Of a stretch of DNA of 64,000 nt, positions 6,401 through 52,038 are shown piece after piece (within the stretch, counting starts at the first letter, position 1; each line of letters starts with the position of its first letter). The position numbers and the translations under genes are program-made. This DNA is from Thiotrichales bacterium (GTDB taxonomy: Bacteria > Pseudomonadota > Gammaproteobacteria > Francisellales > CACEW01): contig CANJUQ010000008.1 in assembly GCA_947478175.1 (NCBI GenBank), positions 4,761 to 68,760 on the forward strand, given 5' to 3'. Below the pieces are notes generated by a model that saw only the letters and a program-made list of their open reading frames with translations, did not search any database and had not been told where the DNA came from.

Positions 6401-9139
6401 ATGACTGACATAACTAATAAGCCCTTAATCTTGATCGACGGATCGTCTTATCTATTTCGCGCTTTCTATGCTCTGCCTAATTTAACCAACGCTACAGGCC
6501 AGCCCACGGGCGCTATTTTGGGCGTGATTAATATGCTCAAAAGTTTATTAACCCAATATGACCCCGAATACATCGCCGTTGTATTTGATACCAAGGGCCC
6601 TAATTTCAGACATCGGCTTTATCCAGACTACAAAGCCAATAGATCCGCAATGCCTGAAGATCTTGCAAGTCAGATAGAACCTATTTTTGAATTTATCGAT
6701 GCCCTAGGTTTGGTTTTAATTAAACAAATGGGTATTGAGGCTGATGATCTCATCGCGACTTTGGCTCATACCGATTTTGCTGAGCATCATGAAATCTTGA
6801 TAGCCACGGGCGATAAAGATTTAGCCCAGCTGGTTAATTCAAAAATATCTTTGATAGACACCATGAAAAACGTCCGACTAGATATCCCTGGCGTCAAAGA
6901 AAAATTCGGCGTCACACCCGAGCAAATCATTGATTACTTAGCCTTGATGGGCGACACCTCCGATAATATTCCTGGTATTCCCGGCGTAGGACCCAAGACA
7001 GCCATCAAATGGATTTCAGAATATTCATCTTTAGATTTGATTATTCAGAACGCGGACAAGATCTCCGGCAAAGTCGGTGAGAATCTCAGAGCTAATCTTT
7101 CCCAGCTAGAACTCGCAAGAAAACTAGTGACCGTCGATTCTCATGTACCTCTAGAATTTGCTGGGGAAAATTTTACCTGGGAAAAATTGCTTAAAAGACC
7201 TGAAGATCAAAATAAATTAGTGACCCTGTGTGAAAAATATGGGTTTAAAACCTGGTTAAAAAATTTAGGGCATGAACCCGGGCGAACACAAGGTTCGCCC
7301 CTACAGGACAATATTCCGGCAAATAATTCAGGCCTCTATGAAACCATTTTGACGCTGGACCAATGGAACCATTGGCAAGAAAAAATTAGCCAATCTACAG
7401 CTCTAGCGATTGATACGGAGACCACCGGACTAGATCCCTTAGAAGATCGCCTCGTCGGCGTATCTTTTTGTGTAGAACCTCACAAAGCTGCCTATTTACC
7501 CCTAGGTCATGATTTACTCGAAGCACCTGACCAACTTTCCATAGATCAAATTCTCCCAGGCTTAAAAAAAATATGCGAAAACCCAAAGCTAGAAAAAATT
7601 GGGCACCATTTAAAATTTGACTGGCAAGTGCTAGCCCAACACGGGATTATTTTTCAGGACCCTTTATTTGATAGCCTGTTAGCGTCCTATGTTTTAGAAG
7701 CTGGCCAAACAAGACATAACTTAGAAACTCTGGCCTTACGCCATCTCAACTTAAAAACAATTTCTTATGAAAGCATCACTGGCAAAGGCGTCAAACAGTT
7801 AACTTTCAATCAAGTCCCCCTAGATCAAGCGACCCAATATTCTGCTGAAGATGCCGATATTACTTTTCAGCTCTATCAAAAATTTAAAAAAACTTTGCAT
7901 GAAAATCCCACGCTCGAAAAATTATTTCGCGAAGAAGAACTTCCTATGCTCAAAGTTTTGGCCCGTATGGAATTACATGGGGTTTTATTAGATGTCCCAG
8001 CTTTACAAAAACAATCTCAAGCACTGGGAAAAACTATTTTAGAAATCGAAAACAATGTCCAAGCTCAACTGGGCATGCATTTTAATCTCAGCTCACCCAA
8101 ACAATTACAGACGGTCTTATTTGAAAAACTTCAGCTTAAACCCGTCAAAAAAACAGCAACAGGTCAGGCATCGACTGACGAAGAAGTTTTGCAAATCTTG
8201 GCTGAGCAACATGAGATTCCAAAATTATTATTAGAACATCGTCATCTTTCTAAACTCAAGACAACTTATACAGATAAGCTCCCACTCATGGTCAACCCCA
8301 AAACCAACCGGGTTCACACGCGATATCATCAAGCCTTCGTTGTCACAGGAAGATTGTCTTCGTCGGATCCCAACTTACAAAATATCCCTATTAAATCCCC
8401 ACAAGGCCGTCAAATTCGCCAAGCGTTTATTGCCCCACCGGGCTCTGTGATTTTGTCTGCAGATTATTCTCAAATAGAACTGCGCATCATGGCCCATTTG
8501 TCTCAAGACCTCAGACTGATTCAAGCCTTTAAAAATGGTGAAGATATTCATCAAGCCACCGCAGCTGAAGTCTTTGGCGTGGAAAATCCCTCTGATGTCA
8601 CTTCTGAACAAAGACGCCGCGCTAAAGCCGTTAATTTTGGATTGATCTATGGCATGAGTGCCTTTGGCTTAGCTAAGCAATTAGGCATCGAAAGATCTCT
8701 CGCTCAACATTACATTGAAACTTATTTTGCAAGATACCCAGGGGTAAAAAAATACATGGAAGAAACCCGAGAACAAGCAAAATCTTTGGGCTATGTCGAA
8801 ACGATTTGGGGCAGAAGATTAGCCTTGCCAGACATCCATTCTAAAAACGCTGTCATGCGACAAGGGGCTGAACGAGCCGCTATCAATGCCCCCATGCAAG
8901 GCTCAGCGGCTGATATTATTAAACGCGCCATGATTCAAATAGATCAAGTCATTGAGACCCAAAAACTTCCCATGGCCATGACATTACAAGTGCACGATGA
9001 ATTAGTTTTTGAGGTTCAAGAACAATCGATTCAACCCATGACCGCATTAATTCGCCACCTTATGACATCGTCCTCATTACTCTCCGTTCCACTCGAAATC
9101 AGTATCAATACGGGGGCCCATTGGGATGAAGCTCATTAA
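6401..9139 (+). CDS. polA: DNA polymerase I
   Basis: Contains a 5' nuclease domain (LILIDGSSYLFRAFYA), a 3'-5' exonuclease domain (DTETTGLD) and polymerase motifs (DYSQIELR, QVHDEL). Start chosen at ATG 6401. The track ORF begins at 6176. Confidence 0.95.
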   Translation: MTDITNKPLILIDGSSYLFRAFYALPNLTNATGQPTGAILGVINMLKSLLTQYDPEYIAVVFDTKGPNFRHRLYPDYKANRSAMPEDLASQIEPIFEFIDALGLVLIKQMGIEADDLIATLAHTDFAEHHEILIATGDKDLAQLVNSKISLIDTMKNVRLDIPGVKEKFGVTPEQIIDYLALMGDTSDNIPGIPGVGPKTAIKWISEYSSLDLIIQNADKISGKVGENLRANLSQLELARKLVTVDSHVPLEFAGENFTWEKLLKRPEDQNKLVTLCEKYGFKTWLKNLGHEPGRTQGSPLQDNIPANNSGLYETILTLDQWNHWQEKISQSTALAIDTETTGLDPLEDRLVGVSFCVEPHKAAYLPLGHDLLEAPDQLSIDQILPGLKKICENPKLEKIGHHLKFDWQVLAQHGIIFQDPLFDSLLASYVLEAGQTRHNLETLALRHLNLKTISYESITGKGVKQLTFNQVPLDQATQYSAEDADITFQLYQKFKKTLHENPTLEKLFREEELPMLKVLARMELHGVLLDVPALQKQSQALGKTILEIENNVQAQLGMHFNLSSPKQLQTVLFEKLQLKPVKKTATGQASTDEEVLQILAEQHEIPKLLLEHRHLSKLKTTYTDKLPLMVNPKTNRVHTRYHQAFVVTGRLSSSDPNLQNIPIKSPQGRQIRQAFIAPPGSVILSADYSQIELRIMAHLSQDLRLIQAFKNGEDIHQATAAEVFGVENPSDVTSEQRRRAKAVNFGLIYGMSAFGLAKQLGIERSLAQHYIETYFARYPGVKKYMEETREQAKSLGYVETIWGRRLALPDIHSKNAVMRQGAERAAINAPMQGSAADIIKRAMIQIDQVIETQKLPMAMTLQVHDELVFEVQEQSIQPMTALIRHLMTSSSLLSVPLEISINTGAHWDEAH
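7280..7307 (+). repeat. REP-like hairpin (family A) inside polA
   Basis: GGGCGAAC-acaag-GTTCGCCC-CTACAGG. Translated in frame as GRTQGSPLQ. Confidence 0.75.
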
Positions 9140-11670: not shown

Positions 11671-11690
11671 GGGCGGCCCGTTGGCCGCCC
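11671..11690 (+). repeat. GC-rich hairpin related to family A (lacks the CTAC tail)
   Basis: GGGCGGCC-cgtt-GGCCGCCC followed by an A8 run. Lies in the convergent spacer between priA and vapC. Confidence 0.45.
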
Positions 11691-11712: not shown

Positions 11713-12135
11713 CTAGAACACCCCCACCGTCTTCTGCGCTACTTGTTTTAATTTTTTATCATTCGTCGCTAATGGAATTTGGTGCCTCATCGCTAGCTCT
11801 AAATAAGCAGCGTCATAACTACTAATTTCATATTCCCGGGCTAGCTCATAAGTCTTTTCAGGAAAAAAATTAGTCAAAGAATCCAATTTCAAAGGCAACT
11901 TTCGCAGCGATTTAATAAATCTTTGACACTCATGGAAATCCATAATATTTCGACGCTCTAAAACTAATAAAACATTCGAAACTTCCAAGGGCCAAATATT
12001 GGGAACAAGCGCTGCTGTTTCTTGGAATTTTTTGAGAACCTGCTTCGCATATTTAGCCCCTGAGGGATTCGTCTCATCGTCATATGCCCAGAGCATGGCG
12101 ACCGAACAGTCCAGAACAAATTGTATTTCACTCAT
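11713..12135 (-). CDS. vapC: PIN-domain toxin VapC
   Basis: MSEIQFVLDCSVAMLW...ISSYDAAYLELA...LATNDKKL carries the PIN acidic residues. Start taken at ATG 12135, preceded by AGGAGAT. Confidence 0.85.
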   Translation of the reverse strand: MSEIQFVLDCSVAMLWAYDDETNPSGAKYAKQVLKKFQETAALVPNIWPLEVSNVLLVLERRNIMDFHECQRFIKSLRKLPLKLDSLTNFFPEKTYELAREYEISSYDAAYLELAMRHQIPLATNDKKLKQVAQKTVGVF

Positions 12136-12145
12136 GTCTGATCTC

Positions 12146-12376
12146 CTATTTCCTGCCCTCGTCAATGATTGCTTTGAGATCTATTTTTTTCGTCGTCTTT
12201 TTAACATTGGTTAATATAGTTTCAATCACTTGGCTCATCTCTTCGTCCTCTCCAATCGGCATTAACTTAGCGACAGGCTTGTCACGCAAAGTAATAACAA
12301 ATTCCTGCCCCTCGCATACCTGGTTTAAAATTTTTGAAAAATGCGTTTTAACTTCAAACGCTCCCACCTTATTCAT
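12146..12376 (-). CDS. Phd/YefM-type antitoxin
   Basis: MNKVGAFEVKTHFSKILNQVCEGQEFVITLRDKPVAKLMP is a typical prevent-host-death N-terminus. A GGAGG RBS lies before ATG 12376. Confidence 0.8.
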   Translation of the reverse strand: MNKVGAFEVKTHFSKILNQVCEGQEFVITLRDKPVAKLMPIGEDEEMSQVIETILTNVKKTTKKIDLKAIIDEGRK

Positions 12377-12556
12377 ATTTACCTCCTTCATACTTTAGGC
12401 TCGGCCAGGCTATCACAGACCAGTCTATCAATCTAGTCTGCTCATAAAATAATTTTAATGTACCCATAGCTAATCTTTAACTCTATTTGTTACATTGAGA
12501 CAATAAAAAAACTTATAAAAAAATTATAAAACCCCATCAAACCCTGGAGCTATCTT

Positions 12557-14573: not shown

Positions 14574-15746
14574 CTACATAGCATCGACGGCATTACAAAG
14601 GAGGCTCACAGCCTCCTTTTTTGCAAGTGCCTTCGCCTTCTGACCCATGCTGTCTAATAGTTTTCTATCGTTAGATAAATCTTGAATCACTTGGGCTAAT
14701 TTCTCAGCGGTTAAATCTTTCTGAATTAAACAAATACCTGCACCTTGTTCTGATAACCATTCGGCATTCATACGCTGATGATCATCGACGACATTAGGAT
14801 GAGGAATAAAAATTGCTGGCAATCCAACCGCTGCGACTTCAGAGACGGTCAACGCTCCAGACCTGCAAATAATCAAATCTGCCCACTGATACTCCTGAAC
14901 AATTTCAGAAAAATAGGGGACCACTTGGATTTCATGTCCTGAATTATTTTTCATAAAATTTTTATAATTTTCTTGGGCTATTTCTAAAGTCTTAGGACCC
15001 GCTTGATGATGAATATTCATGGGATTTTTTATTTTCGAAAGGGCTTCGGGAATCAAAGTATTAAAAATCAAAGAGCCTTGACTGCCACCGGTGATTAAAA
15101 TTTTTAAAGGACCCTCACGCTTCCCCCCTCTCTGCCCCTCAACGCATACGCGTTTCGGGTCTGTCTCTCCCGCGAGGGGAGAGACGAAATCCATTCCATC
15201 TACAAATTTTGAACGAACAATTTCCAAAATATCCGCTCTAATCGGATTCCCAATCACTTCACTTTTAAAATGATTAATAGGAAACGCTGAAAATATTCTT
15301 GCCGCCATCTTGGCCAAATAAAAATTCGTCATGCCCAAGATCGCATTTTGCTCATGAATAAATAAAGGAACCCCCAATGATTTCGCCGCCAATCCCGCCG
15401 GCCCGCTGGCAAAGCCTCCAAAAGAAATAACTAGATCTGCTTTTTTATTTTTTAAAATTTTTCGAGCCTGTAATACGGCTCTCATTAATTTAAACGGTAA
15501 TTGGATCCAGCCCAGTAAGCTCTTGTTTCTGACCCCAGCAATTTTTAAAAAATCACTTTCTATTCCAATTCCAGCCTCAGGCACTAATTTTTTTTCTAAC
15601 CCCACTTCACTGCCAATCCAGCTAATTAAATAACCCCGCTGAATTAATTCTTTTGCGATGGCTAACCCTGGGTAAATATGTCCGCCCGTTCCTCCGGCCG
15701 TTATTACAATATTTTTAATATTTTTTAATTTTCTAATTTTGCTCAC
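14574..15746 (-). CDS. murG: UDP-N-acetylglucosamine--lipid I N-acetylglucosamine transferase
   Basis: Has GGTGGHIYPG and GGSQG motifs. At 390 aa it is longer than usual because of an in-frame repeat insertion. Confidence 0.93.
   Translation of the reverse strand: MSKIRKLKNIKNIVITAGGTGGHIYPGLAIAKELIQRGYLISWIGSEVGLEKKLVPEAGIGIESDFLKIAGVRNKSLLGWIQLPFKLMRAVLQARKILKNKKADLVISFGGFASGPAGLAAKSLGVPLFIHEQNAILGMTNFYLAKMAARIFSAFPINHFKSEVIGNPIRADILEIVRSKFVDGMDFVSPLAGETDPKRVCVEGQRGGKREGPLKILITGGSQGSLIFNTLIPEALSKIKNPMNIHHQAGPKTLEIAQENYKNFMKNNSGHEIQVVPYFSEIVQEYQWADLIICRSGALTVSEVAAVGLPAIFIPHPNVVDDHQRMNAEWLSEQGAGICLIQKDLTAEKLAQVIQDLSNDRKLLDSMGQKAKALAKKEAVSLLCNAVDAM
14600..14622 (+). terminator. rho-independent terminator for the 14100-14564 gene, embedded in the murG 3' coding end
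   Basis: GGAGGCT-cac-AGCCTCC followed by T6. Confidence 0.55.
15131..15197 (+). repeat. 67-bp GC-rich element (family B) inside murG
   Basis: TTCCCCCCTCTCTGCCCCTC...GTCTCTCCCGCGAGGGGAGAGACGA. It has the same length and the same termini as the copy at 38851-38917. Confidence 0.75.
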
Positions 15747-16896: not shown

Positions 16897-16923
16897 GGGC
16901 AGCCCGCTGGCTGCCCCTACAGA
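16897..16923 (+). repeat. REP-like hairpin (family A) overlapping the hemF stop codon
   Basis: GGGCAGCC-cgct-GGCTGCCC-CTACAG. The hemF stop TAG is the complement of CTA at 16917-16919. Confidence 0.75.
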
Positions 16924-17840
16924 CGCCATTCTCTTGGCTTCAAAAATTTTTCGTATAACTCGGCTTCAGGACTGCCAATCTCTGGATGCCAGTTATATTT
17001 AAAACTCACCTCAGGCGGCAGGGACATCAAAATAGATTCTGTCCGTCCTCCCGATTGCAAGCCAAACAAAGTCCCCCGATCGTAAATCAAATTAAATTCG
17101 ACATAGCGACCTCGGCGATATCTCTGAAAATTAATTTCTCGATCGCCATAAGACCTATCTTTTCGACGAGCCACAATTTTTTCATAAGCCTGGATATATC
17201 CTGCCGTAATGCTCTGGAGCATTTCTAAACTTTTGTCTAATGGCAGCTGATTAAAATCATCAAAAAATAAACCGCCAATCCCACGGGGTTCTTTGCGATG
17301 TTTTAAATAAAAATACTCATCGCAGTCTTTTTTAAATTTTGGATATAACTCTTCTCCAAAAGATCTCACCGATTCATAAGCGATCTGGTGCCAGTCTCGA
17401 CAATCTTCTTCAAAGCCATAATACGGCGTTAAATCAAATCCACCGCCCACCCAGCCGACAGGTTTCTCGCCTGGTTTCTCTGCTTGGAAATATCGAATAT
17501 TAAAATGCGACGTTGGGACATACGGATTTTTAGGATGAATCACGACAGAAACTCCCATCGCCTGAAACGATCTTCCCACTAATTCAGGCCGATGTGCGGT
17601 TGCACTGGGTGGCAAAGCATTTCCAAAGACATGTGAAAAATTGACACCGGCTTGATCAAACACAGGGCCTTTTTTTAAAACACAAGTTCGACCACCACCG
17701 CCTTCAGATCGAGTCCATTCGTCTAGTTCAAATTTTTGTCCGTCTGCCTGATCTGCTTGATCTGCCTGACGCTCAACCATGGTGATAATATTTTTTTGGA
17801 CGGTTAATAAAATATTTTTAATAGCACTTAAATCTTGCAT
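16917..17840 (-). CDS. hemF: oxygen-dependent coproporphyrinogen-III oxidase
   Basis: [11 protein letters not shown]...GVNFSHV...[11 protein letters not shown]...[10 protein letters not shown] are HemF motifs. Start at ATG 17840, preceded by GGGAGA. Confidence 0.92.
17744..17770. repeat. 9-bp tandem repeat x3 in hemF (CTGCCTGAT CTGCTTGAT CTGCCTGAC)
   Basis: Read directly. Encodes QADQADQAD. Confidence 0.8.
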
Positions 17841-17864
17841 GCCTAATCTCCCTTTATCGATCAA

Positions 17865-17892
17865 GGGCGGACACGCGGGTCCGCCCCTACAA
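17865..17892 (+). repeat. REP-like hairpin (family A) in the ftsY-hemF spacer
   Basis: GGGCGGAC-acgcgg-GTCCGCCC-CTACAA. Confidence 0.8.
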
Positions 17893-17918: not shown

Positions 17919-18998
17919 TTAAAACAACGCTTCCACAAAATCTTCTGCTTCAAAGACTCTTAGGTCATCTATTTTTTCACCCACACCGATATATCTCACC
18001 GGCAATTTCAAATTCTTAGCCAAGGCAAATAAAATCCCGCCTTTGGCAGTCCCATCTAATTTGGTCAAAACCACCCCTGAGATATTCACAGCTTTCTTAA
18101 ATTCAATAGCCTGAATCAACGCGTTTTGTCCCGTTGTCGCATCTAAAACTAACAAAGTTTCATGGGGGGCCGTAGGGTCAAATTTTTGCATTACTCGCAT
18201 AATTTTATTGAGCTCGTTCATCAGGTTAATTTTGTTATGCAATCGTCCTGCCGTATCTGCAATGACAACATCGATCCCTTTGGCTCTAGCTTTTGTCATA
18301 GCGTCAAAGATTACAGACGCACTGTCTGCCCCATGTTCTTGAGATTGCGAAACCACTTCGATTTGATTTCTCTCACCCCAGACTTGTAATTGCTCGACGG
18401 CAGCCGCTCTAAAAGTATCTCCTGCTGCGAGTAACACTTTCTTGCCGTCTAACTGAAATCTTTTGGCAAGTTTCCCAACAGTCGTTGTTTTTCCAGCGCC
18501 ATTAATACCGACCATTAAGATCACATAAGGTTTTTTATCAGGATTTATAACCAACGGAATTTCGACCGGTTTTAATAAGTTATTTAACTTATTTTTTAAT
18601 TCTTCTATCAGGGCCTCTGGATTTTTTAATATTTTTCTTTCTGACTGCTCCGTTAAGCTGTCAATTATTTCTGTCGTTGCCTCAACGCCGACATCGGCTG
18701 ATAACAAGATTGTTTCAATCTCTTCGAGTAATTCTTGGTCAATTTCTTTTTTACCCAAAATTACTCTTGAAAGAGAGGCTCCGACGGCTTGTCTTGTTTT
18801 AGTTAAGCCTTCTTTAAGTCGCGTAAACCAAGAACCTGTTTTTTCTGTTTGATCTGTTTGATCTGTTTGATCTGTTTGATCTGTTTGATCTTCAGGTTTC
18901 TCACCTTCTGGCATTTTGTCTTTACTTTTACCGACTAATCGTGAAAATAGCCCCACTTTGGCAATACCCCTGTCCCTGAATCCAAAAAAGCGGGGCAT
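17919..18998 (-). CDS. ftsY: signal recognition particle receptor FtsY
   Basis: SRP GTPase motifs GINGAGKTTT, DTAGR and TKLDG, plus an acidic N-terminal domain. Confidence 0.93.
   Translation of the reverse strand: MPRFFGFRDRGIAKVGLFSRLVGKSKDKMPEGEKPEDQTDQTDQTDQTDQTEKTGSWFTRLKEGLTKTRQAVGASLSRVILGKKEIDQELLEEIETILLSADVGVEATTEIIDSLTEQSERKILKNPEALIEELKNKLNNLLKPVEIPLVINPDKKPYVILMVGINGAGKTTTVGKLAKRFQLDGKKVLLAAGDTFRAAAVEQLQVWGERNQIEVVSQSQEHGADSASVIFDAMTKARAKGIDVVIADTAGRLHNKINLMNELNKIMRVMQKFDPTAPHETLLVLDATTGQNALIQAIEFKKAVNISGVVLTKLDGTAKGGILFALAKNLKLPVRYIGVGEKIDDLRVFEAEDFVEALF
18845..18889. repeat. 9-bp tandem repeat x5 in ftsY (CTGTTTGAT)
   Basis: Five perfect copies, read directly. Encodes the DQT repeat run in the acidic N-domain. 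Confidence 0.9.
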
Positions 18999-23511: not shown

Positions 23512-23538
23512 GGGCGAATACAAGATTCGCCCCTACAA
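23512..23538 (+). repeat. REP-like hairpin (family A)
   Basis: GGGCGAAT-acaag-ATTCGCCC-CTACAA, in the convergent spacer before minE. Confidence 0.75.
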
Positions 23539-30262: not shown

Positions 30263-30288
30263 AAAAAACTTGATACCTATACACGCAA

Positions 30289-30318: not shown

Positions 30319-30338
30319 TTATTAAAACAGAAAACAAA

Positions 30339-30575: not shown

Positions 30576-30582
30576 TTTTCTC

Positions 30583-32159: not shown

Positions 32160-32345
32160 CACCTGCCGCCTGCGGGGTTCGATTGTTGAGATGATCTCGA
32201 GCTAATACTTTAAAACCTCGGGGTTCAGCCAAGTTTCAGGAGTGCATGCCAGCTTTAAGCCGGAAGCCCGAAGAAACTTTTAGAATCCCACCTAGTCCTC
32301 CCAGTTCGAGGATACGAAACATAGGCCTGGCGGGCGGCACTTCTT
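32160..32345 (+). ncRNA. ssrS: 6S RNA
   Basis: About 185-nt non-coding stretch immediately upstream of the 5-formyl-THF cyclo-ligase gene, which is the conserved ssrS-ygfA synteny. The 5' UGCCGCCUGC can pair with the 3' GCGGGCGGCA. The internal GAGUGCAUGC...GAAGCC and the 3' GGCGGCAC resemble E. coli 6S RNA. A possible promoter is TTGACT (32129) with TAGCTT (32152). The ends are approximate. Confidence 0.7.
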
Positions 32346-35913: not shown

Positions 35914-36043
35914 ACGACTTTTCTCCTGTTATTTTTTAACCCATTAGAAAATACCGCGCAAAGTACTATAAAAACATCAAAGAAAGAACGCTAAAAGATA
36001 ACAACTAAAAAATAATAAATTTAAATCAAGCGTGTTTTATGTT

Positions 36044-36378
36044 TTTATTTTTTCACATACGGGACATAGCCCGGTTGCCAAATTTTGGCATCAATCGCCG
36101 CAATGACTTCTTGTTCAAACATCGGTTTCGTTAAACCTGATCTCACTGCTTCCAAAGCCACATCTATCGCCACTTGGCATGAGACAGACCTAATTTGATC
36201 TAACGGCGGTAGTAAATTTTCTTCTGTGAATAATCCTGGTTGGCCTGAAACACCTAAATAAAACGGTCGGTTTTAAATTTTTAACCACATCGTAAAAATT
36301 AATGACCCCAGGCTGACGCAATGTCCAATTTTGATAAACCGCTTTTTTCTGAGCGAATGGAGCTTGAAAAGACAACAG
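36044..36378 (-). pseudogene. malic enzyme (maeA) 3' fragment with internal deletion and frameshift
   Basis: Nucleotide-level match to 38960-39147 plus 39469-39618 of the intact maeA. Track ORF 36190-36375 reads SFQAPFAQKKAVYQNW..INFYDV, matching maeA SFQAPFAQKKSAYQNW..INFYDV, and then loses frame. Confidence 0.85.
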
Positions 36379-36428
36379 AATATCTTGCAGTGCTCAGGAA
36401 AACCAGAACAACTGGCCTAACAACTAAC

Positions 36429-38198
36429 CTAACAGACACTGTGAACTGTTACAGGGCTAACTGGCACGGGTGTTGAACTGCTTCTGTTTGCAGGAGGAGT
36501 GCTCAAGCCTTCTTCGATGCTCGTTCCATCTTGAAGTTTGAAATAATCCTTACCTGATGGCGTGCGGAATGTAGTGCTGCCAGAGAGCACCCCCGATGCC
36601 TCACGATGTTCTTCTGAAGGTACAACGCCTTCGCCTACACCGCCGTATTGGCCTCCGTTTCCGAAAGGTTGGAGCCTATGCCGACGATTGAAACATGCGG
36701 CTATTTTCGTACAAGGCTTAGATTCTTGCGGAAGATCAGTGCTTTGATAATTAGCTCGGAACCAAATGCCCAAACATAAACTCCCCGCAATAAAATTCCC
36801 CAAGATGGCTCCCGTCGCAACACCCTCAGGACTCTTCATCGCCTTCACACCCAAGCCATAAGAAAGACTCAGCCCAACCAAGCCCATTCCAAATAAACTA
36901 GAAAGCATGGGCTGAATAGTCTTTTTTGTGAGGCCTTGATAAGCACTCGCGGCAGCGTAGCGAAGCCCATCAAAGACTTGTGCCACAACCGTCAAGCTCA
37001 TGATGGATGGCAACCAAGCGAGTACCAAAGGATTATTTACAGCGTCAGCCCCTAAAAATAACTTAGACACTGGATTAGCAATAAAAGGCGTGATAACACA
37101 CCAAAGCGTCGCCCAAATAAGCGGAAGAATAATACTGATATTCCCCAGACGATAAGCTGCTTCAAAATTTTTGGCCCCCACCATGGTTCCCAATATTTGA
37201 ACTCCAGCATTCCCTAAACTCTGTGTCACGGTAAAGATCAAGTTACTGAAAATGCTGACAGCACTCGCCACGGTCAGAGCCTCTGAGCTAATCAAATTAT
37301 AAAAAGCACTTCCAAAAAAAGCAGAGGACCACTCCACCCCCAACCGTACACTTAAAGGCAGCCCTGTTTGTAACAGCTCTTTCATCATGTCCCAGGAGCC
37401 TGCTAATTTAAATTTAAACAGCCCTGAAAGCTTTATTTCTCCGATGTTTAGCTCTTTCCCAGAAACAGTTAAAACCGCTGGTGTTGTTTTACATAAAATA
37501 AGCGCTGTAGAAGCAATCGCGTTAAACCAAATACGACTAATCGCTGCCAACGCAAGTCCTTCAATGCCTAGTTTAGGAAACCCAAACCCACCCAGCCCGA
37601 ACCCATAACCCAAGAGGACCATCAAAGGCACACTGGCATAATTAAAACTTGAGACCCAGCTTCTTTGGTTCAACACGCATAGATAAGGCCTGACCGCCGA
37701 ACCGTAACTAAAGGCCAAAACACTCGGGAGATACCAACGTAAAAATCTTTGAGCCATTCCAGTAATAATGGCGTTTTCATGAAATAGCCTTCCCAACACA
37801 AACCCTGAAAAGTAGAAAGCTGTTGCCACGATCGAGGCAGAAGCTAAGGCGTAATACAGGCCTTGTTGCCCCATAAGAAAAACGGCCTCGCGGGCCGTTT
37901 GTCTATCTTCTTCTGTGGTGGCTGCATGAATGGCCCCCAATTTATTACCTAACAAGCCATATAAGGCGTTCATAGGCGCTGATAGCGCCGTCTGGAATAG
38001 TTTGTAAGTCATGGCCCACTGATTGGCGGTTAATTCATCTTTACCCAATCGCGCCATAAAAATCTGAGTCGCCATGTCAGCCGCTGTGGATGCCAACATG
38101 CTTGCCATAATGGGTCCTGCCGTTTTTATCACCTCACAAACTTCTGTTTTCTGTGCCTTGATTTTCAAGATGGTTTGAGTAAAACAAGTCCCTGACAT
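36429..38198 (-). CDS. MATE/MOP-superfamily-like polytopic membrane protein with C-terminal tail (paralog 2)
   Basis: Collinear with 33790-35913. Start placed at ATG 38198 (MSGTCFTQ), aligned with the paralog 1 start and preceded by AGGAGA. Confidence 0.68.
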   Translation of the reverse strand: MSGTCFTQTILKIKAQKTEVCEVIKTAGPIMASMLASTAADMATQIFMARLGKDELTANQWAMTYKLFQTALSAPMNALYGLLGNKLGAIHAATTEEDRQTAREAVFLMGQQGLYYALASASIVATAFYFSGFVLGRLFHENAIITGMAQRFLRWYLPSVLAFSYGSAVRPYLCVLNQRSWVSSFNYASVPLMVLLGYGFGLGGFGFPKLGIEGLALAAISRIWFNAIASTALILCKTTPAVLTVSGKELNIGEIKLSGLFKFKLAGSWDMMKELLQTGLPLSVRLGVEWSSAFFGSAFYNLISSEALTVASAVSIFSNLIFTVTQSLGNAGVQILGTMVGAKNFEAAYRLGNISIILPLIWATLWCVITPFIANPVSKLFLGADAVNNPLVLAWLPSIMSLTVVAQVFDGLRYAAASAYQGLTKKTIQPMLSSLFGMGLVGLSLSYGLGVKAMKSPEGVATGAILGNFIAGSLCLGIWFRANYQSTDLPQESKPCTKIAACFNRRHRLQPFGNGGQYGGVGEGVVPSEEHREASGVLSGSTTFRTPSGKDYFKLQDGTSIEEGLSTPPANRSSSTPVPVSPVTVHSVC

Positions 38199-38311
38199 AT
38201 GACTTTTCTCCTGTGATTTCTTAGCCAATTAAAAAATACAGCGCAAAGTACTATAAAAATATTAAAGAAAGAACGCTAAAAAATAACAGCTAAAAAAATA
38301 ATAAATTTAAA

Positions 38312-38836
38312 TCAAGCAGGCTCTGTCAGGTCAAATCTCTTACGAATAAAATAAATCAGCCCAGACAAGACCAAAGCAATCGCGACCCCAACACATGATT
38401 CTAGAAATCGCGAAGAGGCATTCACCCAGGGACTGATATAAATACCTCCCACCTGACTCACCGCGAAAATAATGGCCACTGTGATACAGCTCAGACGATA
38501 GAGCGATAGTTTAAAGAACGCACAAATCATGACTGATAAAAGCATGCCAATAAAAAAAGATTCGTCGTGATAGCCCATGAAAGAAAAAACAATCCAAGAA
38601 ATCAAAACGCCTATCAGAGTCCCCAAAACACGGTTTTTTGCATTGTTTAACATTTCTCGATAATTAACATGTCCAATAATCACCGCTGAGATCATGGCCC
38701 AGAGCCCACCAATCAAAGGGCTTCCAGCATGTAAATAATGAGAAATCCAAGCGCCCAATAAAAAACCAATCAAAGCTGTGACACTGGCTTCAAGCGCTGT
38801 GAGCAATTTAAAACGACGAATGATTTTTTTGAGCAT
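38312..38836 (-). CDS. FUSC/aromatic-acid-exporter-like small membrane protein
   Basis: About 174 aa with 5-6 TM helices. Start at ATG 38836 (MLKKIIRR). The upstream part of the track ORF is just the translated family B repeat. Confidence 0.55.
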   Translation of the reverse strand: MLKKIIRRFKLLTALEASVTALIGFLLGAWISHYLHAGSPLIGGLWAMISAVIIGHVNYREMLNNAKNRVLGTLIGVLISWIVFSFMGYHDESFFIGMLLSVMICAFFKLSLYRLSCITVAIIFAVSQVGGIYISPWVNASSRFLESCVGVAIALVLSGLIYFIRKRFDLTEPA

Positions 38837-38850
38837 TTTATTTTTCCTAT

Positions 38851-38917
38851 TTCCCCCCTCTCTGTCCCTACAGGCTAGGGCCTTTCGGGCCTGTCTCTCC
38901 CGCAGGGGGAGAGACGA
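38851..38917 (+). repeat. 67-bp GC-rich element (family B), intergenic copy
   Basis: TTCCCCCCTCTCTGTCCCTA...GTCTCTCCCGCAGGGGGAGAGACGA. The termini are identical to the murG copy and the central ~13 nt differ. Confidence 0.75.
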
Positions 38918-38959
38918 TTCAAGCAATCAGCAGGGCCTAAAATTCGCCCCATTATTCTT

Positions 38960-40672
38960 TTATCTCTGTTTTTTCACATATGGGACATAATTGGGCCACC
39001 AAATTTTGGCATCAATCGCTGCAATGACTTCTTGTTCAGACATCGGTTTCGTTAAACCTGATCTCACTGCTTCCAAAGCAACATCGATAGCCACCTGGCG
39101 TGAGACAGACCGAATTTGATCTAACGGCGGTAGTAGATTTTCTTCTGAATTATTTTTAGCAGGCGATAAAGCTGCAAGCGCTTTCGCCGCGACCATAAAC
39201 ATGCTGTCCGTCACATGCTTGGCTTTGACCGCAATAATCCCCAAACCCATCCCCGGGAAAATATAAGAATTATTGGTCTGATCAATATGCCTAGATTTGC
39301 CATTAAACATCACATCAGGAAAGGGACTTCCCGTTCCCATAATCACACGACCGTCTGTCCACCGACACAAATCCTCAGGTTTTCCTTCACTGCGAGAAGT
39401 GGGATTAGAGAGTGGGAAAATAATGGGCCGTTGGGTCTTAGACGCCATGAGTTTCACGATTTCTTCTGTGAATAATCCTGGTTGGCCTGAGACGCCCAAC
39501 AAGACCGTTGATTTTAAATTTTTCATGACATCGTAAAAATTAATTGTCCCAGGTTTTTGTAAGACCCAATTTTGATAAGCCGATTTTTTTTGAGCAAATG
39601 GGGCCTGAAAAGACAAAAGACCTGACATTTCTTCAGTTAATAACCCATGAGCATCAATAATAAAAAATCGCGCACGAGCCTCAGATTCAGACAAACCTGC
39701 AGCCATCATGGCTTGGGCCATTAAATTACTAATACCGCAACCGGCCGAACCTCCACCGACAACGACAATCAATTGATCTTGAATCTTACTTCCAATGGAT
39801 TGAACCGCGGCCAAAAGCGTCCCTGTTGCCACAGCAGCTGTCCCCTGAATATCGTCATTGAATGTACAAAGTTGATCTCGGTATTTAGCCAAAATAGGGT
39901 TCGCATTTTGTTGAGCGAAATCTTCCCACTGCAATAAAACATGCGGGAATCTTTTTTTAATCGCTTTAACAAATAGGTCCACAAAATCTTCATATTCTTT
40001 GCCGCGGACACGCTCATGACGCCAACCCATATAAAGCGGATCTTTCAATAAATCCTGATTATTGGTCCCCGTATCAAGCAAAATAGGGAGTGTCTTAGCG
40101 GGATGAATTCCGGCACACGCGGTATAAAGCGCAAGTTTTCCAATGGGGATTCCCATTCCTCCCGCCCCTTGATCGCCCAAGCCTAGAATTCTTTCACCAT
40201 CTGAAACGACGATGGCTTCCACCGCATCAAAACGAATATGGCTAAGAATTTCATCCAGATTGTCTTTGCAAACAGGGGTCAAATATAAGCCCCGAGGACG
40301 GCGATAAATATGACTAAAATTTTGGCAGGCCTCACCAACAACTGGCGTATAGACAATCGGCAGCATCTCTTGAATATGGTCAACTAACAGGCTGTAAAAC
40401 AAAGTTTCGTTGGAGTCCTGTAATTCACGCAGATAAATATATTTTTCAATCGGCTTAGATTTGTTTTGGAAAGCTTGATAAGAGCGTTTCTTTTGAGTTT
40501 CTAAATCACTCACACCAAACGCTAACAGGCCATGTAAACCAAAAGCATGACGCTCATCCTCAGGAAAAGCTGAGCCTTTGTTTAAAATTGGATTGCGAAC
40601 CAGATCAAAATCAGATTGATTTACTTCGTAATAGACATGCCCTACAGCGTCTCTTTTTTCCTGATGATGCAT
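38960..40672 (-). CDS. maeA: NAD-dependent malic enzyme
   Basis: 570 aa with VYTPVVGEAC, GLGDQGAGGMGIPIGK, GGSAGCGI and FPLSNPT motifs. Confidence 0.93.
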   Translation of the reverse strand: MHHQEKRDAVGHVYYEVNQSDFDLVRNPILNKGSAFPEDERHAFGLHGLLAFGVSDLETQKKRSYQAFQNKSKPIEKYIYLRELQDSNETLFYSLLVDHIQEMLPIVYTPVVGEACQNFSHIYRRPRGLYLTPVCKDNLDEILSHIRFDAVEAIVVSDGERILGLGDQGAGGMGIPIGKLALYTACAGIHPAKTLPILLDTGTNNQDLLKDPLYMGWRHERVRGKEYEDFVDLFVKAIKKRFPHVLLQWEDFAQQNANPILAKYRDQLCTFNDDIQGTAAVATGTLLAAVQSIGSKIQDQLIVVVGGGSAGCGISNLMAQAMMAAGLSESEARARFFIIDAHGLLTEEMSGLLSFQAPFAQKKSAYQNWVLQKPGTINFYDVMKNLKSTVLLGVSGQPGLFTEEIVKLMASKTQRPIIFPLSNPTSRSEGKPEDLCRWTDGRVIMGTGSPFPDVMFNGKSRHIDQTNNSYIFPGMGLGIIAVKAKHVTDSMFMVAAKALAALSPAKNNSEENLLPPLDQIRSVSRQVAIDVALEAVRSGLTKPMSEQEVIAAIDAKIWWPNYVPYVKKQR

Positions 40673-42466: not shown

Positions 42467-42890
42467 AATGGCACTGACTTAAGGTCGGCAAGGCTTATCT
42501 TGCTTGAATTCCCCTCTCCAATATTGGAGAGGGCAAGCCACTGAAAGTGGCGCGGGAGAGGGATTTAAAAAACATCCCACTATTGCAAGTTCAGATAAAT
42601 AGCTTCAAGAACAGCTGCTTTTTCTTTAAATACTTCATGATTACGTCATGATTTCAAAATCTAATGACGTGAAATCCCAAAGACTCTAAATGCTTTGTTC
42701 GATTTGAATCTCTTTTGGCATGTGATTCTTCCAGATGTTGACTGCCATCGAGTTCGATAATCAGATATTTTTAATGTGTTATTTATTTTTAAATCCCTCT
42801 CCCGCGCCACTTTCAGTGGCTTGCCCTCTCCAATATTGGAGAGGGGAATTCAAGCAAGATAAGCCTTACCGACCTTAAGTCAGTGCCATT
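42467..42890. mobile_element. foldback / MITE-like element with 105-bp terminal inverted repeats
   Basis: 42467-42571 is the reverse complement of 42786-42890 with a single mismatch. The arms carry nested hairpins (CCCTCTCC-aatatt-GGAGAGGG and GCCAC-tgaaa-GTGGC). Confidence 0.65.
42579..42770 (-). pseudogene. DUF559 (Vsr-like endonuclease) C-terminal remnant
   Basis: The reverse frame reads KYLIIELDGSQHLEESHAKRDSNRTKHLESLGFHVIRF then TGA then NHDVIMKYLKKK. A 1-nt shift restores AAVLEAIYLNLQ. The N-terminal half is missing. Confidence 0.6.
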
Positions 42891-47466: not shown

Positions 47467-48171
47467 ATGAGAATTTTAATTGCCATTCCGACCCTCAATG
47501 AAGTCAATACGATTGAGCCCCTGCTTTTAAGCTTACTGAATGACTCGTCCAAGCCTGACATTATTGTCATCGATGATCATTCTTTAGATGGCACCCCTCA
47601 AATCATTAAAAAAATCCAAACGCAATATCTCAATCGAGTTTGTCTTTTCGAACGTCCTAATAAACATGGCATTGCCAGTGCTTATCTTTTGGCCTTCCAA
47701 CAGGGTCTCAGAAATAATTATGACTGTTTTTTTCAAATAGACGCCGATCTTTCTCATGATCCTTCTGCCATTAGCCAATTTATAATTGCCATTAAACAAG
47801 GCGCAGGCTGTGTCTTGGGCAGCCGTTATATTCCTGATGGCAAAATAGAAAACTGGACTCTTTCACGAAAAATTCTCAGTGCTGCGGGAAATCTTTACGC
47901 CAGAATTTTCTTATGTTTGCCTTATAAAGACGTCACGTCAGGTTATAAATGCTTTAGTCGAAAAGCTTTGCTAGCCCTAGATTTTTCAAAAATTAATTGC
48001 TGTGGCTATGCCTTTCAAATCGAAATGACTTATAGGCTCCACCGCCAAAAAATAAAAATTCTAGAAATCCCCATTATTTTTTCAGATCGAACCCAAGGCA
48101 AATCTAAGATGTCTAAAAAAATTATCTTAGAGGCCATTCTGAAAGTGCCTTTGATGCGATGGGGTTTTTAA
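47467..48171 (+). CDS. GT2 polyprenol-phosphate mannosyltransferase-like glycosyltransferase
   Basis: Has the Dpm1-like pattern IPTLNE...VIDD.S.DGT...DADLSHDP...GSRY. Confidence 0.8.
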   Translation: MRILIAIPTLNEVNTIEPLLLSLLNDSSKPDIIVIDDHSLDGTPQIIKKIQTQYLNRVCLFERPNKHGIASAYLLAFQQGLRNNYDCFFQIDADLSHDPSAISQFIIAIKQGAGCVLGSRYIPDGKIENWTLSRKILSAAGNLYARIFLCLPYKDVTSGYKCFSRKALLALDFSKINCCGYAFQIEMTYRLHRQKIKILEIPIIFSDRTQGKSKMSKKIILEAILKVPLMRWGF

Positions 48172-48518
48172 GTAACCCCGACAAATAACACCCGATTAAC
48201 TTCATCGATATGATGTTTAAACGGCGGGTAAGTAATTAACTCGTAGGCGTTAATATCTACTTTGTAAGGCAAAGAACTTTCATTAAATAAAGTCCAAATT
48301 CGATCCATTATTTTTGTATCTAATGGATCATCAGCATTGCTATAAAGAACTAAATCAATATCTGAATTATCCCGATATTTCCCTGTTGCCCGAGAACCAA
48401 ACAAAGCTACACGATTAATCTGGTGAGCCCAGGGTTTTAAAATTTTTTTAATTATTTCTAAATGGCCATGGCTCAATCCATGATTAATTGGCTGATTAGC
48501 ATTAGTAAAATTAGACAT
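48168..48518 (-). CDS. mntA: MNT-domain nucleotidyltransferase (MntA-type antitoxin)
   Basis: Has the minimal NTase signature FGSRATGKYRDNSDIDLVL. Start at ATG 48518, overlapping the hepT stop by 8 nt. Confidence 0.8.
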   Translation of the reverse strand: MSNFTNANQPINHGLSHGHLEIIKKILKPWAHQINRVALFGSRATGKYRDNSDIDLVLYSNADDPLDTKIMDRIWTLFNESSLPYKVDINAYELITYPPFKHHIDEVNRVLFVGVT

Positions 48519-48924
48519 CTTGCGAACCTGCCAAAGTCTCATAAAGATTTTTTAAGCAAGCCAAATACTGTTGTTCAATATCTGTGATAACTGATTCAAA
48601 CTGTTTCAAATCATAGGTATGACTCATCTTGTTTCGATCATCTAGTGCTTGCATCCAAATGTCGCCCTGATGGATTAATCGACTGGCAATAGCTTCTTTA
48701 ATCACAGCTCTGGGTGTGATTTGCTCAAATACAACATTCTGGCTTTCTAAATAATCTTTCATGGTCTTCCAAGCCAGCTCAATGCTGTATTCAAAACGTT
48801 GAATCACTCCTTCTTTTTCTAGTGTACTGAGACCACGTTCTTTTTTTTGATCTATGGATTCTTGGAGTAAAAAGTAAGCCCGTTTGAAATTATCAAAACG
48901 ATATTGCCAGCGTTTCTTTTCCAT
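48511..48924 (-). CDS. hepT: HEPN-domain protein, HI0074 family (HepT-type toxin)
   Basis: RWQYRFDNFKRAY...IQRFEYSIELAWKTMKDYL...DRNKMSHTY contains the Rx4H HEPN motif. Confidence 0.8.
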   Translation of the reverse strand: MEKKRWQYRFDNFKRAYFLLQESIDQKKERGLSTLEKEGVIQRFEYSIELAWKTMKDYLESQNVVFEQITPRAVIKEAIASRLIHQGDIWMQALDDRNKMSHTYDLKQFESVITDIEQQYLACLKNLYETLAGSQDV

Positions 48925-49104: not shown

Positions 49105-52038
49105 ATGACTATTGCTGACTATCTCTCTGCCCTTCGCCATTCTAATTTCTCTGGCGAAATTCGAACGGATTTCTCGACTCGACTGGCTTTATCGACTGAC
49201 AACAGTATTTATCAAAGAATTCCTGAAGCCGTTTTATTTCCCAAGACTCATCAAGATATTGTCGAAATTTTTAAACTGGCCGGAAAACCAGAATTTAAAA
49301 AAATCAGATTTTCTCCCCGAGCTGGCGGCACTGGGACTGACGGTCAATCTTTAACGTCAGATATTTTGATCGACTGTTCGAAATATTTGCGAGAAATCTT
49401 AGAAATCAATCTCGAAGCCGGTTATGCCCGAGTCCAAGCAGGCGTGGTCTTAGATCAATTAAATAATATCCTTAAACCCCATGGCGTATTTTTTGCCCCT
49501 CAAGTTTCACCGTCTAACAGAGCTTGCATTGGCGGGATGTTTAATACGGATGGATGCGGCCTAGGGTCTGCTAAATATGGCCGAACGAGTGAGCATGTTT
49601 TAGGGGTCACCGCCGTTTTGATTAATGGCGAAGTTTTAAATACTCAAGCCAGAACTTTGCCTTTATCTAATCACCAAAATCTCTCGCCCACAGAATTAAA
49701 TCTCAGTGAGAAAATTTTAACCTGGCTCTCTGAGCATCAAAATTTAATTCAAGAAAAAGCCCTCAAAATGCCCAGATTTCTCACGGGCTACAACTTATTG
49801 CACCCACTTCAAAATAATCAATTAGACCTCACAAGATTGCTTTCAGGTTCTGAAGGGACATTGGCCATGATCACAGAACTGACGGTCAAACTTACTCCCT
49901 TGCCTAAACATAAAGCTTTACTAGTTATTAAATATTTAGATTTTGATCGGGCTTTAAGACATGGCGCTTCACTGTTAATTCACCAACCCGAAGCGACAGA
50001 AACCATTGATGACAAGATTATTAATCTCGCCCGAAAAGACGAAGTTTTTCTGAAAGTAAAACCCATGTTTGAATATGACGGCCCGGATGAAACCACGCAG
50101 GCGATTAATTTAATTGAATTCACTCATGAGCATCCCCAGGCTTTGTTAGACAAAATTCAAGAAATTAAAACTCTTTTAGCTCAAGACACTCAAATCAATG
50201 GGATTTTTATAACTCAAGACCCCAAAGAAATTTCAGCTTGGTGGGAACTTCGTAAAAAAAGCGTGGGCCTTTTAGCTAATTTACCTGGCAAACGTCAGCC
50301 CGTTCCCTTTGTCGAAGATACGGCCGTCGATCCTTCTGTGTTGCCAGAATTTATTCGGGATTTTCGAGCTGTCTTAGATCAGGACAATTTGGTCTATGGC
50401 ATGTTTGGGCACATAGATACTGGCTGTATTCATGTCAGACCGGCGTTAGATATGACCGATCCTGACGATGCTAAAAAAGTTAAAATTATTTCAGACAAAA
50501 TTCAAAAACTCGTTAAACACTATGGCGGCTTACTTTGGGCTGAACACGGTGCTGGATTTCGTAGTCATTATATTCCTGAATACTTTGGGCCAGAGCTCAC
50601 TCAGCTCATGGTAAAAATCAAAACATTATTTGATCCAGAGAACCAACTCAACCCAGGCAAAATTATTTCGTCAGATCCCAGTATTCCTATTGTCAGACCC
50701 GGCGAAGAATTAAGAGCAACACGAGAATCTCAAGTACCCAGTGATGTAAGACATCAATTTGAGAAAGCCTTCAAGTGCAATGGCAATGCCATCTGTATGA
50801 ACGTCATGCCAGACATCGCGATTTGCCCGTCTTATAAAATCACACGAGATCGAGTGCATTCACCCAAAGGTCGGGCTGTTTTAATGCGAGAATATCTCCG
50901 ACAAGAATCATTAGGTGAAATAGATTTATCTTTTGCTGAAGAAGTTAAAAAATCCATGGATGGTTGTTTAGGCTGTAAATCTTGTGTTTCTGGCTGTCCT
51001 GTCAATGTCGATGTACCGAGTTTTAAAAGTGAATTTTATGCACGGTATTACCGATCTAAACTCAGGTCTTTACGAGATATTTTGACGGCGAATTTTGAGC
51101 GATTGACGCAGATCAAGGCATGGTTTGTAAACATTGGTGGTAGGTGCTTATCGAGGGCGGACACGCAGGTCCGCCCCTACAGGAAAAATCAAAAAATTAG
51201 GTTCGCTACAAGAATAACTGGCCTCGTCGATCTCCCGAAAATTTCTAAAAATCTTTCGCTTTTAAAACAAATCCCCAAAGCCAATTCTAAAAATATTTCC
51301 CAGGCCCAAAAACCTATTTTATTAATGGGCGATGTTCTGACCCGCTTTCATCATCCTGAATTATTACTCGACGCTGCCAAGTTAATAAAAAAACTAGGCT
51401 ACACGCCCCTACTATTACCATTTATTCAAAACGGAAAATCTTTTCACGCCCTGGGATATCTTAAAAAATTCGAATATTTAGCTAAAAAAAATCAGCAATT
51501 TTTAAAAAAATATTTTGATCAAAATATTCCCATCTTGGGCATCGAACCGGCTTTGACGCTCGCTTTTCGAGATGAATATAAAAATATTTTAGAAAAAAAT
51601 AATAATAAAATAGGGTTTTCAGTCCAATTGATTTCGGAATGGTTAGAAAAACTGGATCTTTCTGGTTTAAAGGGCGGACACGCAGGTCCGCCCCTACGAA
51701 TGCCCTCAAAGTCTTATGCTTTTATTTCCCACTGTTCTGAAAAATCCCTCGTGCCCTACTCTGCAAAACACTGGCAAAAAATATTCACACAAATGGGATT
51801 AGATTTGATTTTGCTCGAAGCAGGTTGCTGTGGCATGGCGGGTGTCTATGGCCATCAGATAGAACATCAAGAAAACTCTAAAAATCTCTATGAACTTTCC
51901 TGGGAAACTCATGTCAAAAATTATGGGGAAAACTTACTAGCCACGGGCCATTCCTGTCGATCTCAAATAAAAAGATTGGGGGGGGGAAATATCAAACACC
52001 CTCTATCTGTTTTGACGTCTTATTGGCTTAATGATTAA
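49105..52038 (+). CDS. FAD-linked oxidase fused to Fe-S/CCG-domain oxidoreductase (YdiJ-like)
   Basis: 977 aa with an N-terminal FAD-binding PCMH-type domain (GGTGTDGQS). The middle region has the 4Fe-4S motif CLGCKSCVSGCP and the C-terminus has Cys-rich CCG-type repeats. Confidence 0.82.
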   Translation: MTIADYLSALRHSNFSGEIRTDFSTRLALSTDNSIYQRIPEAVLFPKTHQDIVEIFKLAGKPEFKKIRFSPRAGGTGTDGQSLTSDILIDCSKYLREILEINLEAGYARVQAGVVLDQLNNILKPHGVFFAPQVSPSNRACIGGMFNTDGCGLGSAKYGRTSEHVLGVTAVLINGEVLNTQARTLPLSNHQNLSPTELNLSEKILTWLSEHQNLIQEKALKMPRFLTGYNLLHPLQNNQLDLTRLLSGSEGTLAMITELTVKLTPLPKHKALLVIKYLDFDRALRHGASLLIHQPEATETIDDKIINLARKDEVFLKVKPMFEYDGPDETTQAINLIEFTHEHPQALLDKIQEIKTLLAQDTQINGIFITQDPKEISAWWELRKKSVGLLANLPGKRQPVPFVEDTAVDPSVLPEFIRDFRAVLDQDNLVYGMFGHIDTGCIHVRPALDMTDPDDAKKVKIISDKIQKLVKHYGGLLWAEHGAGFRSHYIPEYFGPELTQLMVKIKTLFDPENQLNPGKIISSDPSIPIVRPGEELRATRESQVPSDVRHQFEKAFKCNGNAICMNVMPDIAICPSYKITRDRVHSPKGRAVLMREYLRQESLGEIDLSFAEEVKKSMDGCLGCKSCVSGCPVNVDVPSFKSEFYARYYRSKLRSLRDILTANFERLTQIKAWFVNIGGRCLSRADTQVRPYRKNQKIRFATRITGLVDLPKISKNLSLLKQIPKANSKNISQAQKPILLMGDVLTRFHHPELLLDAAKLIKKLGYTPLLLPFIQNGKSFHALGYLKKFEYLAKKNQQFLKKYFDQNIPILGIEPALTLAFRDEYKNILEKNNNKIGFSVQLISEWLEKLDLSGLKGGHAGPPLRMPSKSYAFISHCSEKSLVPYSAKHWQKIFTQMGLDLILLEAGCCGMAGVYGHQIEHQENSKNLYELSWETHVKNYGENLLATGHSCRSQIKRLGGGNIKHPLSVLTSYWLND
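51155..51183 (+). repeat. REP-like hairpin (family A) inside the YdiJ-like gene
   Basis: GGGCGGAC-acgcag-GTCCGCCC-CTACAGG. Translated as RADTQVRPYR. Confidence 0.8.
51672..51700 (+). repeat. REP-like hairpin (family A) inside the YdiJ-like gene
   Basis: The same 26-mer as at 51155. Translated in another frame as GGHAGPPLR. Confidence 0.8.

Follow-up and report, generated by a model that had tools for sequence, protein, structure and literature searches.

How did a set of short, GC-rich hairpins come to be scattered over the genes of an AT-rich gammaproteobacterium, and to which kind of element do they belong? The question is raised by a stretch of 64,000 nt from a Thiotrichales bacterium (contig CANJUQ010000008.1 of assembly GCA_947478175.1, forward-strand positions 4,761 to 68,760), called the window in the following, with all coordinates counted from its first letter. 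A preliminary description made from the sequence of the window had listed seven such hairpins between 7280 and 51700 and had compared them with repetitive extragenic palindromes (REPs) and with Rickettsia palindromic elements (RPEs). We are confident that the hairpins are REPs with a GTAG tag and three G-C pairs at the base of the stem, a type that is tied in the literature to subclass 2.4 of the transposase TnpA-REP, that is Group 4 of the tyrosine transposases that are associated with REPs (RAYTs). The REP part of the earlier comparison was right and the kind had already been described, while the likeness to RPEs is a loose one, since in-frame insertion is common to both but RPE-1 is described as longer.

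On the minus strand every copy has the same layout, namely 5'-GTAG followed by an 8-bp stem (GGGC plus four variable positions) that closes over a loop of 4–6 nt, and the whole unit measures 24–26 nt. The stem is perfect over its 8 bp in the six tagged copies, all of which start with GTAG-GGGC and end with GCCC, which gives three consecutive G-C pairs at the stem base. Searching the window for GGGC-N4-loop(4-6)-N4-GCCC returned eight matches, compared to 2.0 ± 1.5 in dinucleotide-preserving shuffles (n=100), none of which reached eight. Seven of these matches are the sites listed in the preliminary description, with identical coordinates and sequences, and the eighth, at 6808, forms no hairpin and was discarded as a chance match. 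At all seven sites the inner stem positions are perfectly complementary, for which the chance per site is approximately 1/256, and at six of the seven CTAC directly follows the hairpin on the + strand, GTAG thus standing at zero distance from it on the minus strand. The octamer GCCCCTAC was found eight times on the + strand of the window and never on the − strand. Four different stems (GGAC, GAAC, GAAT and AGCC) are present among the six copies, each of them fully Watson-Crick paired. When the whole window was scanned without filters with a covariance model built from the window copies and foreign variants, exactly six full-length copies were obtained, all on the minus strand, with 29–40 bits and E-values from 1e-6 to 6e-10. 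Folded as single-stranded DNA the six hairpins reach −9 to −11 kcal/mol (z −3.4 to −6.3 against shuffles), and with 56–81% G+C compared to 41% for the window they are indeed the GC-rich islands they had been said to be.

The first copy, GTAG-GGGCGAAC-cttgt-GTTCGCCC at 7280..7304 (37.8 bits), lies in frame and antisense inside polA. Two copies are located at either end of hemF: GTAG-GGGCAGCC-agcg-GGCTGCCC at 16897..16920 (29.3 bits) between hemF and a gene of the rodA/ftsW family, and GTAG-GGGCGGAC-ccgcgt-GTCCGCCC at 17865..17890 (39 bits) in the ftsY-hemF spacer, sense to both genes; the stem-loop variant of the latter is also present in a foreign locus. The fourth copy, GTAG-GGGCGAAT-cttgt-ATTCGCCC at 23512..23536 (36.1 bits), is found 30 nt 3' of the minE stop codon. 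The remaining two, at 51155..51180 and 51672..51697 (40.3 bits each), are identical 26-mers as previously noted, read GTAG-GGGCGGAC-ctgcgt-GTCCGCCC and lie in frame inside ydiJ, the first one antisense and the second one in a different frame. All six are minus-strand elements, and the gene context was taken from Pfam, including MinE, MinD and MinC. The adjoining upstream 8.1 kb of the contig gave no additional REP copies, which amounts to a density of six copies in 72 kb of one contig.

The seventh site, GGGCGGCC-cgtt-GGCCGCCC at 11671..11690, was left out of the family because it has no GTAG or CTAC tag in either orientation, and its membership is doubtful. It is a tag-less GC hairpin to which no strand can be assigned, it scores 20.9 bits over model positions 4–26 only, and it is located between the convergent priA and PIN-toxin genes, where it is not terminator-like on either strand, an A-run following it on the + strand and a T-run preceding it on the − strand. 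Thus all seven sites exist as they had been read, but only six of them are members. A possible decayed relic, CGCCGAAT-acaaa-ATTCGCCC-ACAC, is present on the minus strand at 6308..6333. It is 69% identical to the 7280 copy and has the same orientation, scores below the threshold of the covariance model and sits 5' of the true polA start, inside a spurious extension of the open reading frame (ORF).

Genomes of many phyla carry the exact 26-mer of the two ydiJ copies, which was detected in at least 120 stretches of DNA. Among the matches listed, its hosts are delta-proteobacteria, Bacteroidales, Acidobacteriota, Chloroflexota, Oscillospiraceae and cyanobacteria as well as Nitrospirales, Lentisphaeraceae, Thermaceae, Methylobacter, Kangiella, a metagenome-assembled genome (MAG) of the Coxiellaceae and others, and it is multi-copy elsewhere, with five loci on a scaffold of Methylobacter marinus A45. 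In 124 aligned occurrences among these matches the information content drops to approximately zero right outside the 26 nt, and as the flanks carry no information the unit consists of the tag and the hairpin only and is not the end of a longer element. In the window itself, the flanks shared between copies are no longer than 3–5 nt. A miniature inverted-repeat transposable element or an element of the RPE-1 type, with at least ~100 bp, terminal inverted repeats and a conserved interior, was rejected because the conservation ends exactly at the ends of the 26-mer.

The preservation of the 8-bp hairpin by covariation, which had been proposed from the seven perfectly paired stems of the window, was confirmed in these genomes. 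From the 103 foreign sites that match the outer frame only, 90 have a perfect inner stem, and therefore stem covariation is a general property of the family; 23 different inner stems are present across all matching sites of the foreign loci. The pair counts on our alignment (A2) are illustrative only, as its foreign rows had been preselected for pairing. The covariation is real but not new, since it is the normal sub-family structure of REPs.

We also considered an assembly artefact or a contaminant, which was rejected because copies sit in frame within conserved genes, the same contig recurs unchanged in several samples and the 26-mer is present in isolate genomes such as Methylobacter marinus A45. 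On a metagenomic contig of 77.8 kb the window spans positions 13420-77419. Exact-protein look-ups revealed no strain polymorphism and gave the same contig or identical short contigs only.

All-against-all clustering of the ORFs from the 120 foreign loci revealed no recurrent neighbour genes except one small RAYT-like family, whose members lie at or beside the 26-mer in four loci (L014, L029, L046 and L113) from four different phyla, and the exact REP is in this way physically linked to RAYT-like genes in other genomes. The full-length members tested, from L014 and L046, pass the Pfam model Y1_Tnp (cutoff 23) with 24.5 and 25.1 bits; in NCBIfam they match best the REP-associated tyrosine transposase (REP_Tyr_transpos), with E-values of 3e-13 and 3.5e-14, below the cutoff of that model. 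The family is weakly similar to RayT from E. coli and its proteins carry the HuH (MPNHIHGII) and Tyr (LWQRNYYEHI) motifs. Between these two motifs the 26-mer REP is translated in frame as VGADLRVRP, and more copies abut the gene. An in-frame REP between HuH and Y inside the tnpA-REP gene has been described as unique to subclass 2.4, whose REPs show three G-C pairs in succession at the base of the stem (Quentin et al. 2018, PMC6006769). The corresponding RAYT Group 4 is present in 17 bacterial classes and is common in Cyanobacteria, Chlorobia and Caldilineae (Bertels et al. 2017, PMC5581495), a class distribution that agrees with the taxa carrying the 26-mer. The identity of the 26-mer over many phyla is compatible with Group 4 RAYTs that take their own REP along when they spread horizontally.

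From TnpA-REP of E. coli it is known that the enzyme cleaves and rejoins single-stranded REP DNA with GTAG as guide (PMC3333891). We propose the same mechanism for the window copies. The GTAG strand, when single-stranded, would fold into the 8-bp hairpin, and a Y1 HuH tyrosine transposase (RAYT/TnpA-REP) would recognize this hairpin together with the 5' GTAG guide tetranucleotide and would cleave and rejoin the strand, with the result that the short element is copied to new sites. Because the hairpin shape and the tag would be what the enzyme reads, stems could drift as long as both arms change together, and compensated stems would persist as sub-families. In their present places, one copy provides the stop codon of hemF and another one a terminator-like hairpin with a U-tract behind minE, with one more copy in an operon spacer and three in genes. 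As no RAYT gene is located within the 72 kb examined, we can only infer that such mobilisation took place in this genome and that a RAYT, present now or formerly, was the mover of these copies.

Several observations weigh against the assignment to REPs of a Group 4 RAYT. No RAYT was found in the 72 kb, neither by Pfam in all 60 window ORFs nor by phmmer with E. coli RayT in the six-frame window ORFs, and the gene table of the 8.1 kb upstream is without Y1_Tnp; thus the copies could be relics. The RAYT search that had been suggested came out negative in the window and the 8.1 kb upstream. Furthermore, Group 4 is reportedly rare in Proteobacteria (PMC5581495), yet the best named protein matches place the contig in the Gammaproteobacteria, for example to PolA (55%) and YdiJ (43%) from Piscirickettsia, the nearest relatives reaching 64–68%. 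Each of the six copies is a singleton; in many REP families, inverted dimers (REPINs or bacterial interspersed mosaic elements, BIMEs) are formed instead. Finally, no GTAG REP was present in the ydiJ loci of the nearest relatives (23 kb and 15 kb examined), whose YdiJ orthologs are 64% and 51% identical.

The six copies have a uniform orientation. That the polarity does not depend on the strand of the gene had been described correctly, with three copies antisense inside + strand genes and three copies sense and downstream of − strand genes; the polarity is constant, but the biologically meaningful strand is the minus strand with its 5'-GTAG-hairpin and not the + strand on which it had been read. 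The single orientation holds for the six orientable copies, as the tag-less hairpin at 11671 has none. One explanation would be replication-coupled insertion with GTAG always on the lagging-strand template as for IS608. The GC skew of the + strand is negative in all 2-kb bins except one (+0.002), and thus the GTAG strand is the G-rich strand, which is conventionally the lagging-strand template. This agrees with the preference of Y1 transposases from the IS200/IS605 family of insertion sequences (IS) for the lagging-strand template (PMC3333891, PMC6006769), and GTAG lies on this G-rich minus strand in six out of six copies. However, six out of six has a two-sided probability of just 0.03, and the foreign 8-kb loci with the same REP do not follow the skew: among the matches listed, the GTAG strand is the G-rich one in 57 cases and the C-rich one in 67. 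In these other genomes the orientation was not biased relative to GC skew, whether the whole set, the singletons, the loci of stronger skew, the AT-rich gammaproteobacterial loci or the single genomes were considered. We thus regard replication-coupled insertion as unlikely; the uniform orientation is real but unexplained, and it is quite possibly due to chance.

An even bolder scenario combines this orientation with the distribution of the 26-mer. It assumes one pan-bacterial REP-RAYT unit that moves horizontally, with a 26-nt master kept identical over more than a dozen phyla, possibly owing to a copy carried inside the RAYT gene, and that in this host inserts only with GTAG on the lagging-strand template. 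We consider it improbable. If it were true, the orientation would be a genomic signature of a replication-coupled spread of REPs, as for IS608.

Another possibility is that the hairpins did not arise by copying of a mobile repeat but evolved in place as independent terminators or mRNA-stabilising structures. Behind the copy at 23512 comes TTATTTTTTT, a U-tract, and this copy is the top terminator-like site of the region in a terminator scan, which makes this hairpin 3' of minE a predicted terminator for the minCDE genes, and the three intergenic copies are all sense and downstream of minus-strand genes. A U-tract follows this copy only and is missing from the other five, on which ground intrinsic terminators were rejected as a class. 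Coding sequences hold three of the copies, which are antisense to the mRNA, two copies are identical 26-mers, the same 26-mer recurs over many phyla in unrelated contexts, and the GTAG tag, which is invariant, plays no part in termination. Evolution in place is thus very unlikely. At hemF, the minus-strand ORF (16917-17864) ends at 16917 with the TAG of the 16897 copy's tag as its stop codon.

PolA and YdiJ tolerate the three in-gene copies in parts of the protein that are flexible or variable. In PolA the 7280 copy is translated as PGRTQGSPLQ and falls into the linker that joins the 5'-3' exonuclease domain, which ends at residue 337 according to Pfam, to the 3'-5' exonuclease domain, which starts at residue 388. 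An alignment to E. coli PolA, in addition to close homologs, places the insertion in an unconserved part of this linker. The product of ydiJ is a FAD-oxidase/Fe-S protein, in which the 51155 copy encodes SRADTQVRPYR, and all ten aligned homologs have a gap at this position (11 residues, 7 in one of them). The 51672 copy falls into a region of variable length among YdiJ homologs. For annotation this means that GRTQGSPLQ in PolA and the REP peptides in YdiJ are repeat-encoded and not native sequence.

The alignment to E. coli PolA also showed that the true polA start is Met76 of the ORF, at 6401. The ORF as listed, with its extension 6176-6400, begins 75 codons too early, and the gene calls of the public contig also have the long form of 987 aa.

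Could the hairpins instead be attachment or target sites, or orphan sub-terminal hairpins, of insertion sequences of the IS200/IS605 type or of the REP-targeting IS110/IS1111 type? Some IS110-family elements insert into REPs, which we counted in favour of this idea. Pfam revealed no transposase of any kind among the window ORFs, there is no conservation outside the 26-mer, and the proteins linked to the 26-mer elsewhere lack the IS200/IS605 layout of left and right ends. They score best as REP-associated tyrosine transposase, with the REP inside the gene as the signature of subclass 2.4. An origin from IS is therefore highly improbable.

Structured RNA elements, either regulatory or small RNAs, that are kept by selection at the RNA level are extremely unlikely, even if the compensatory changes do keep the stem and many REPs are transcribed and may act as RNA (Di Nocera et al., PMC3733652), as the hairpins have no Rfam match at gathering thresholds, the transcribed strand varies (three sense, three antisense) while the DNA polarity is constant, and the stem variants of the window are all Watson-Crick without G-U intermediates, a weak point with four stems only.

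A second repeat family is present in the window besides the GTAG REPs. Its 67-nt unit occurs at 15121-15187 and 38851-38917 with 82% identity and ends in a hairpin, GTCTCTCCC-loop-GGGAGAGAC, which is preceded by C on the minus strand, resulting in CGTC. The copy at 15121-15187 is translated in frame (VSPLAGETD...) where the two Pfam domains of MurG leave a gap, and the other one is located at the 5' end of the ORF 38312-38926. The closest relatives have peptides of the same type (SPLVGETG, VSPPAGETD and VSPTGGET) in the regions of YdiJ and of the PolA linker, and because of these the family seems to be common to the clade and to use the PolA linker that is occupied by the GTAG REP here. With a GTAG REP in this genome and, at the same place in the two closest relatives, a peptide like the one that the second hairpin family encodes in murG here, the inter-domain linker of PolA appears to be a recurrent landing place for hairpin repeats in this clade.

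Other repeat-encoded insertions were observed in the YdiJ homologs P0006 (locus L132) and P0002. P0006 has ERGLDSRLRGNDEK and a tandem NAAKNKAPEPVEGSF repeat, the former resembling GSRLRGND, the peptide given for the CGTC-1 REPs of Coxiella burnetii in the supplement of Di Nocera et al. The variable regions of YdiJ, too, take up hairpin repeats recurrently.

Additional structures were noticed in the window. In the spacer between a permease gene and mutS a 424-bp foldback (42467-42890) has arms of 105 nt that are 99% complementary and 214 nt apart, each of them with the hairpin CCCTCTCCA-atat-TGGAGAGGG. On the minus strand its core encodes IELDGSQHLEESHAKRDSNRTKHLESLGFHVIRF, a stop and then NHDV, which we take to resemble the C-terminal end of a DUF559/Vsr-like endonuclease interrupted by a stop in frame and which is possibly a pseudogene remnant framed by inverted repeats. 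A membrane protein with a MatE domain is encoded by two tandem paralogs (33790-35913 and 36429-38228), which share DNA blocks of 68–85% identity, and the spacer 36037-36379 repeats 38958-39620, the 3' end of a malic-enzyme gene, with 79–88% identity; this arrangement points to a segmental duplication from which a gene fragment remained. In the 5' part of ftsY, on the minus strand at 18836-18898, the 9-nt unit CTGTTTGAT is repeated in tandem in ~6–7 copies and gives a repeated tripeptide in the N-terminal region of FtsY. The sole Rfam match of the window is a full-length 6S RNA (SsrS) at 32164-32340 (+) with 82.5 bits.

The window furthermore contains several gene pairs of the toxin-antitoxin type, namely HigB with its partner (5281-6104), Phd/YefM with PIN (11713-12391), a FitA-like ribbon-helix-helix protein with PIN (30270-31020) and a nucleotidyltransferase (NTase) with an NTase-substrate-binding protein (48168-48924). 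A perfect 17-bp palindrome, GATTGAATAATATGTCT-att-AGACATATTATTCAATC (5279-5315), lies across the beginning of the HigB-toxin ORF (5281-5661) and may be the operator of this pair, the second ORF of which is 5658-6104.

Among the known systems the closest one is the superfamily of GTAG REPs, which was divided into 24 families with stems of 6–13 bp and includes the REP/BIME of E. coli, the Pseudomonas REPs and the SMAGs from Stenotrophomonas (Di Nocera, De Gregorio and Rocco 2013, BMC Genomics 14:522, PMC3733652). The window copies share with it the unpaired GTAG directly at the base of a GC-rich stem that closes over a short loop (PMC3733652, PMC3333891). Sub-families set apart by complementary changes of the stem, tags that provide the TAG stop codon of adjacent ORFs, and in-frame copies inside genes, notably those for replication and repair including DNA polymerase I, have all been reported for these REPs (PMC3733652), and each has its counterpart here in the four stems, in hemF and in polA. 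Their location is mainly downstream of ORFs, comparable to the three copies downstream of genes and the three inside genes in the window. In contrast, the copies described here are singletons without inverted dimers or clusters, and their host is an uncultured AT-rich gammaproteobacterium. We placed the element in the superfamily by its anatomy and not in one of the 24 numbered families. Its exact consensus was not found in a literature search, which returned only unrelated primer matches, and it is absent from those supplements of the 2013 study that were searched.

The REPs of subclass 2.4 or Group 4 are similar in their 5' GT[AG]G tag and the three G-C pairs at the stem base, in the 26-mer that is in frame between HuH and Tyr in the four foreign loci and in a patchy distribution over many phyla. 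They differ in that the REPs of subclass 2.4 are called 'canonical long' (Quentin et al. 2018), whereas the unit in the window is a simple 8-bp stem, and in that the 72 kb examined here revealed no cognate RAYT. The RPEs of Rickettsia, which we compared by description only, are also palindromic and insert in frame into protein genes of an AT-rich bacterium, where they are tolerated in surface or linker regions, but RPE-1 is described as longer, and the short RPE-4 and RPE-6 are assigned to the CGTC-tagged superfamily and not to the GTAG one (PMC3733652). The sub-terminal hairpins of IS200/IS605 elements such as IS608 and ISDra2 show the same combination of a 5' guide tetranucleotide and a hairpin on one strand together with a Y1 HuH transposase; unlike these, the REP copies are not the ends of a transposase-bearing element and their surroundings are unrelated from copy to copy.

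In summary, the significance of the finding is small, as it provides one more host, an uncultured AT-rich gammaproteobacterium, for a published repeat class. The hairpins are an ordinary, already characterised kind of element.

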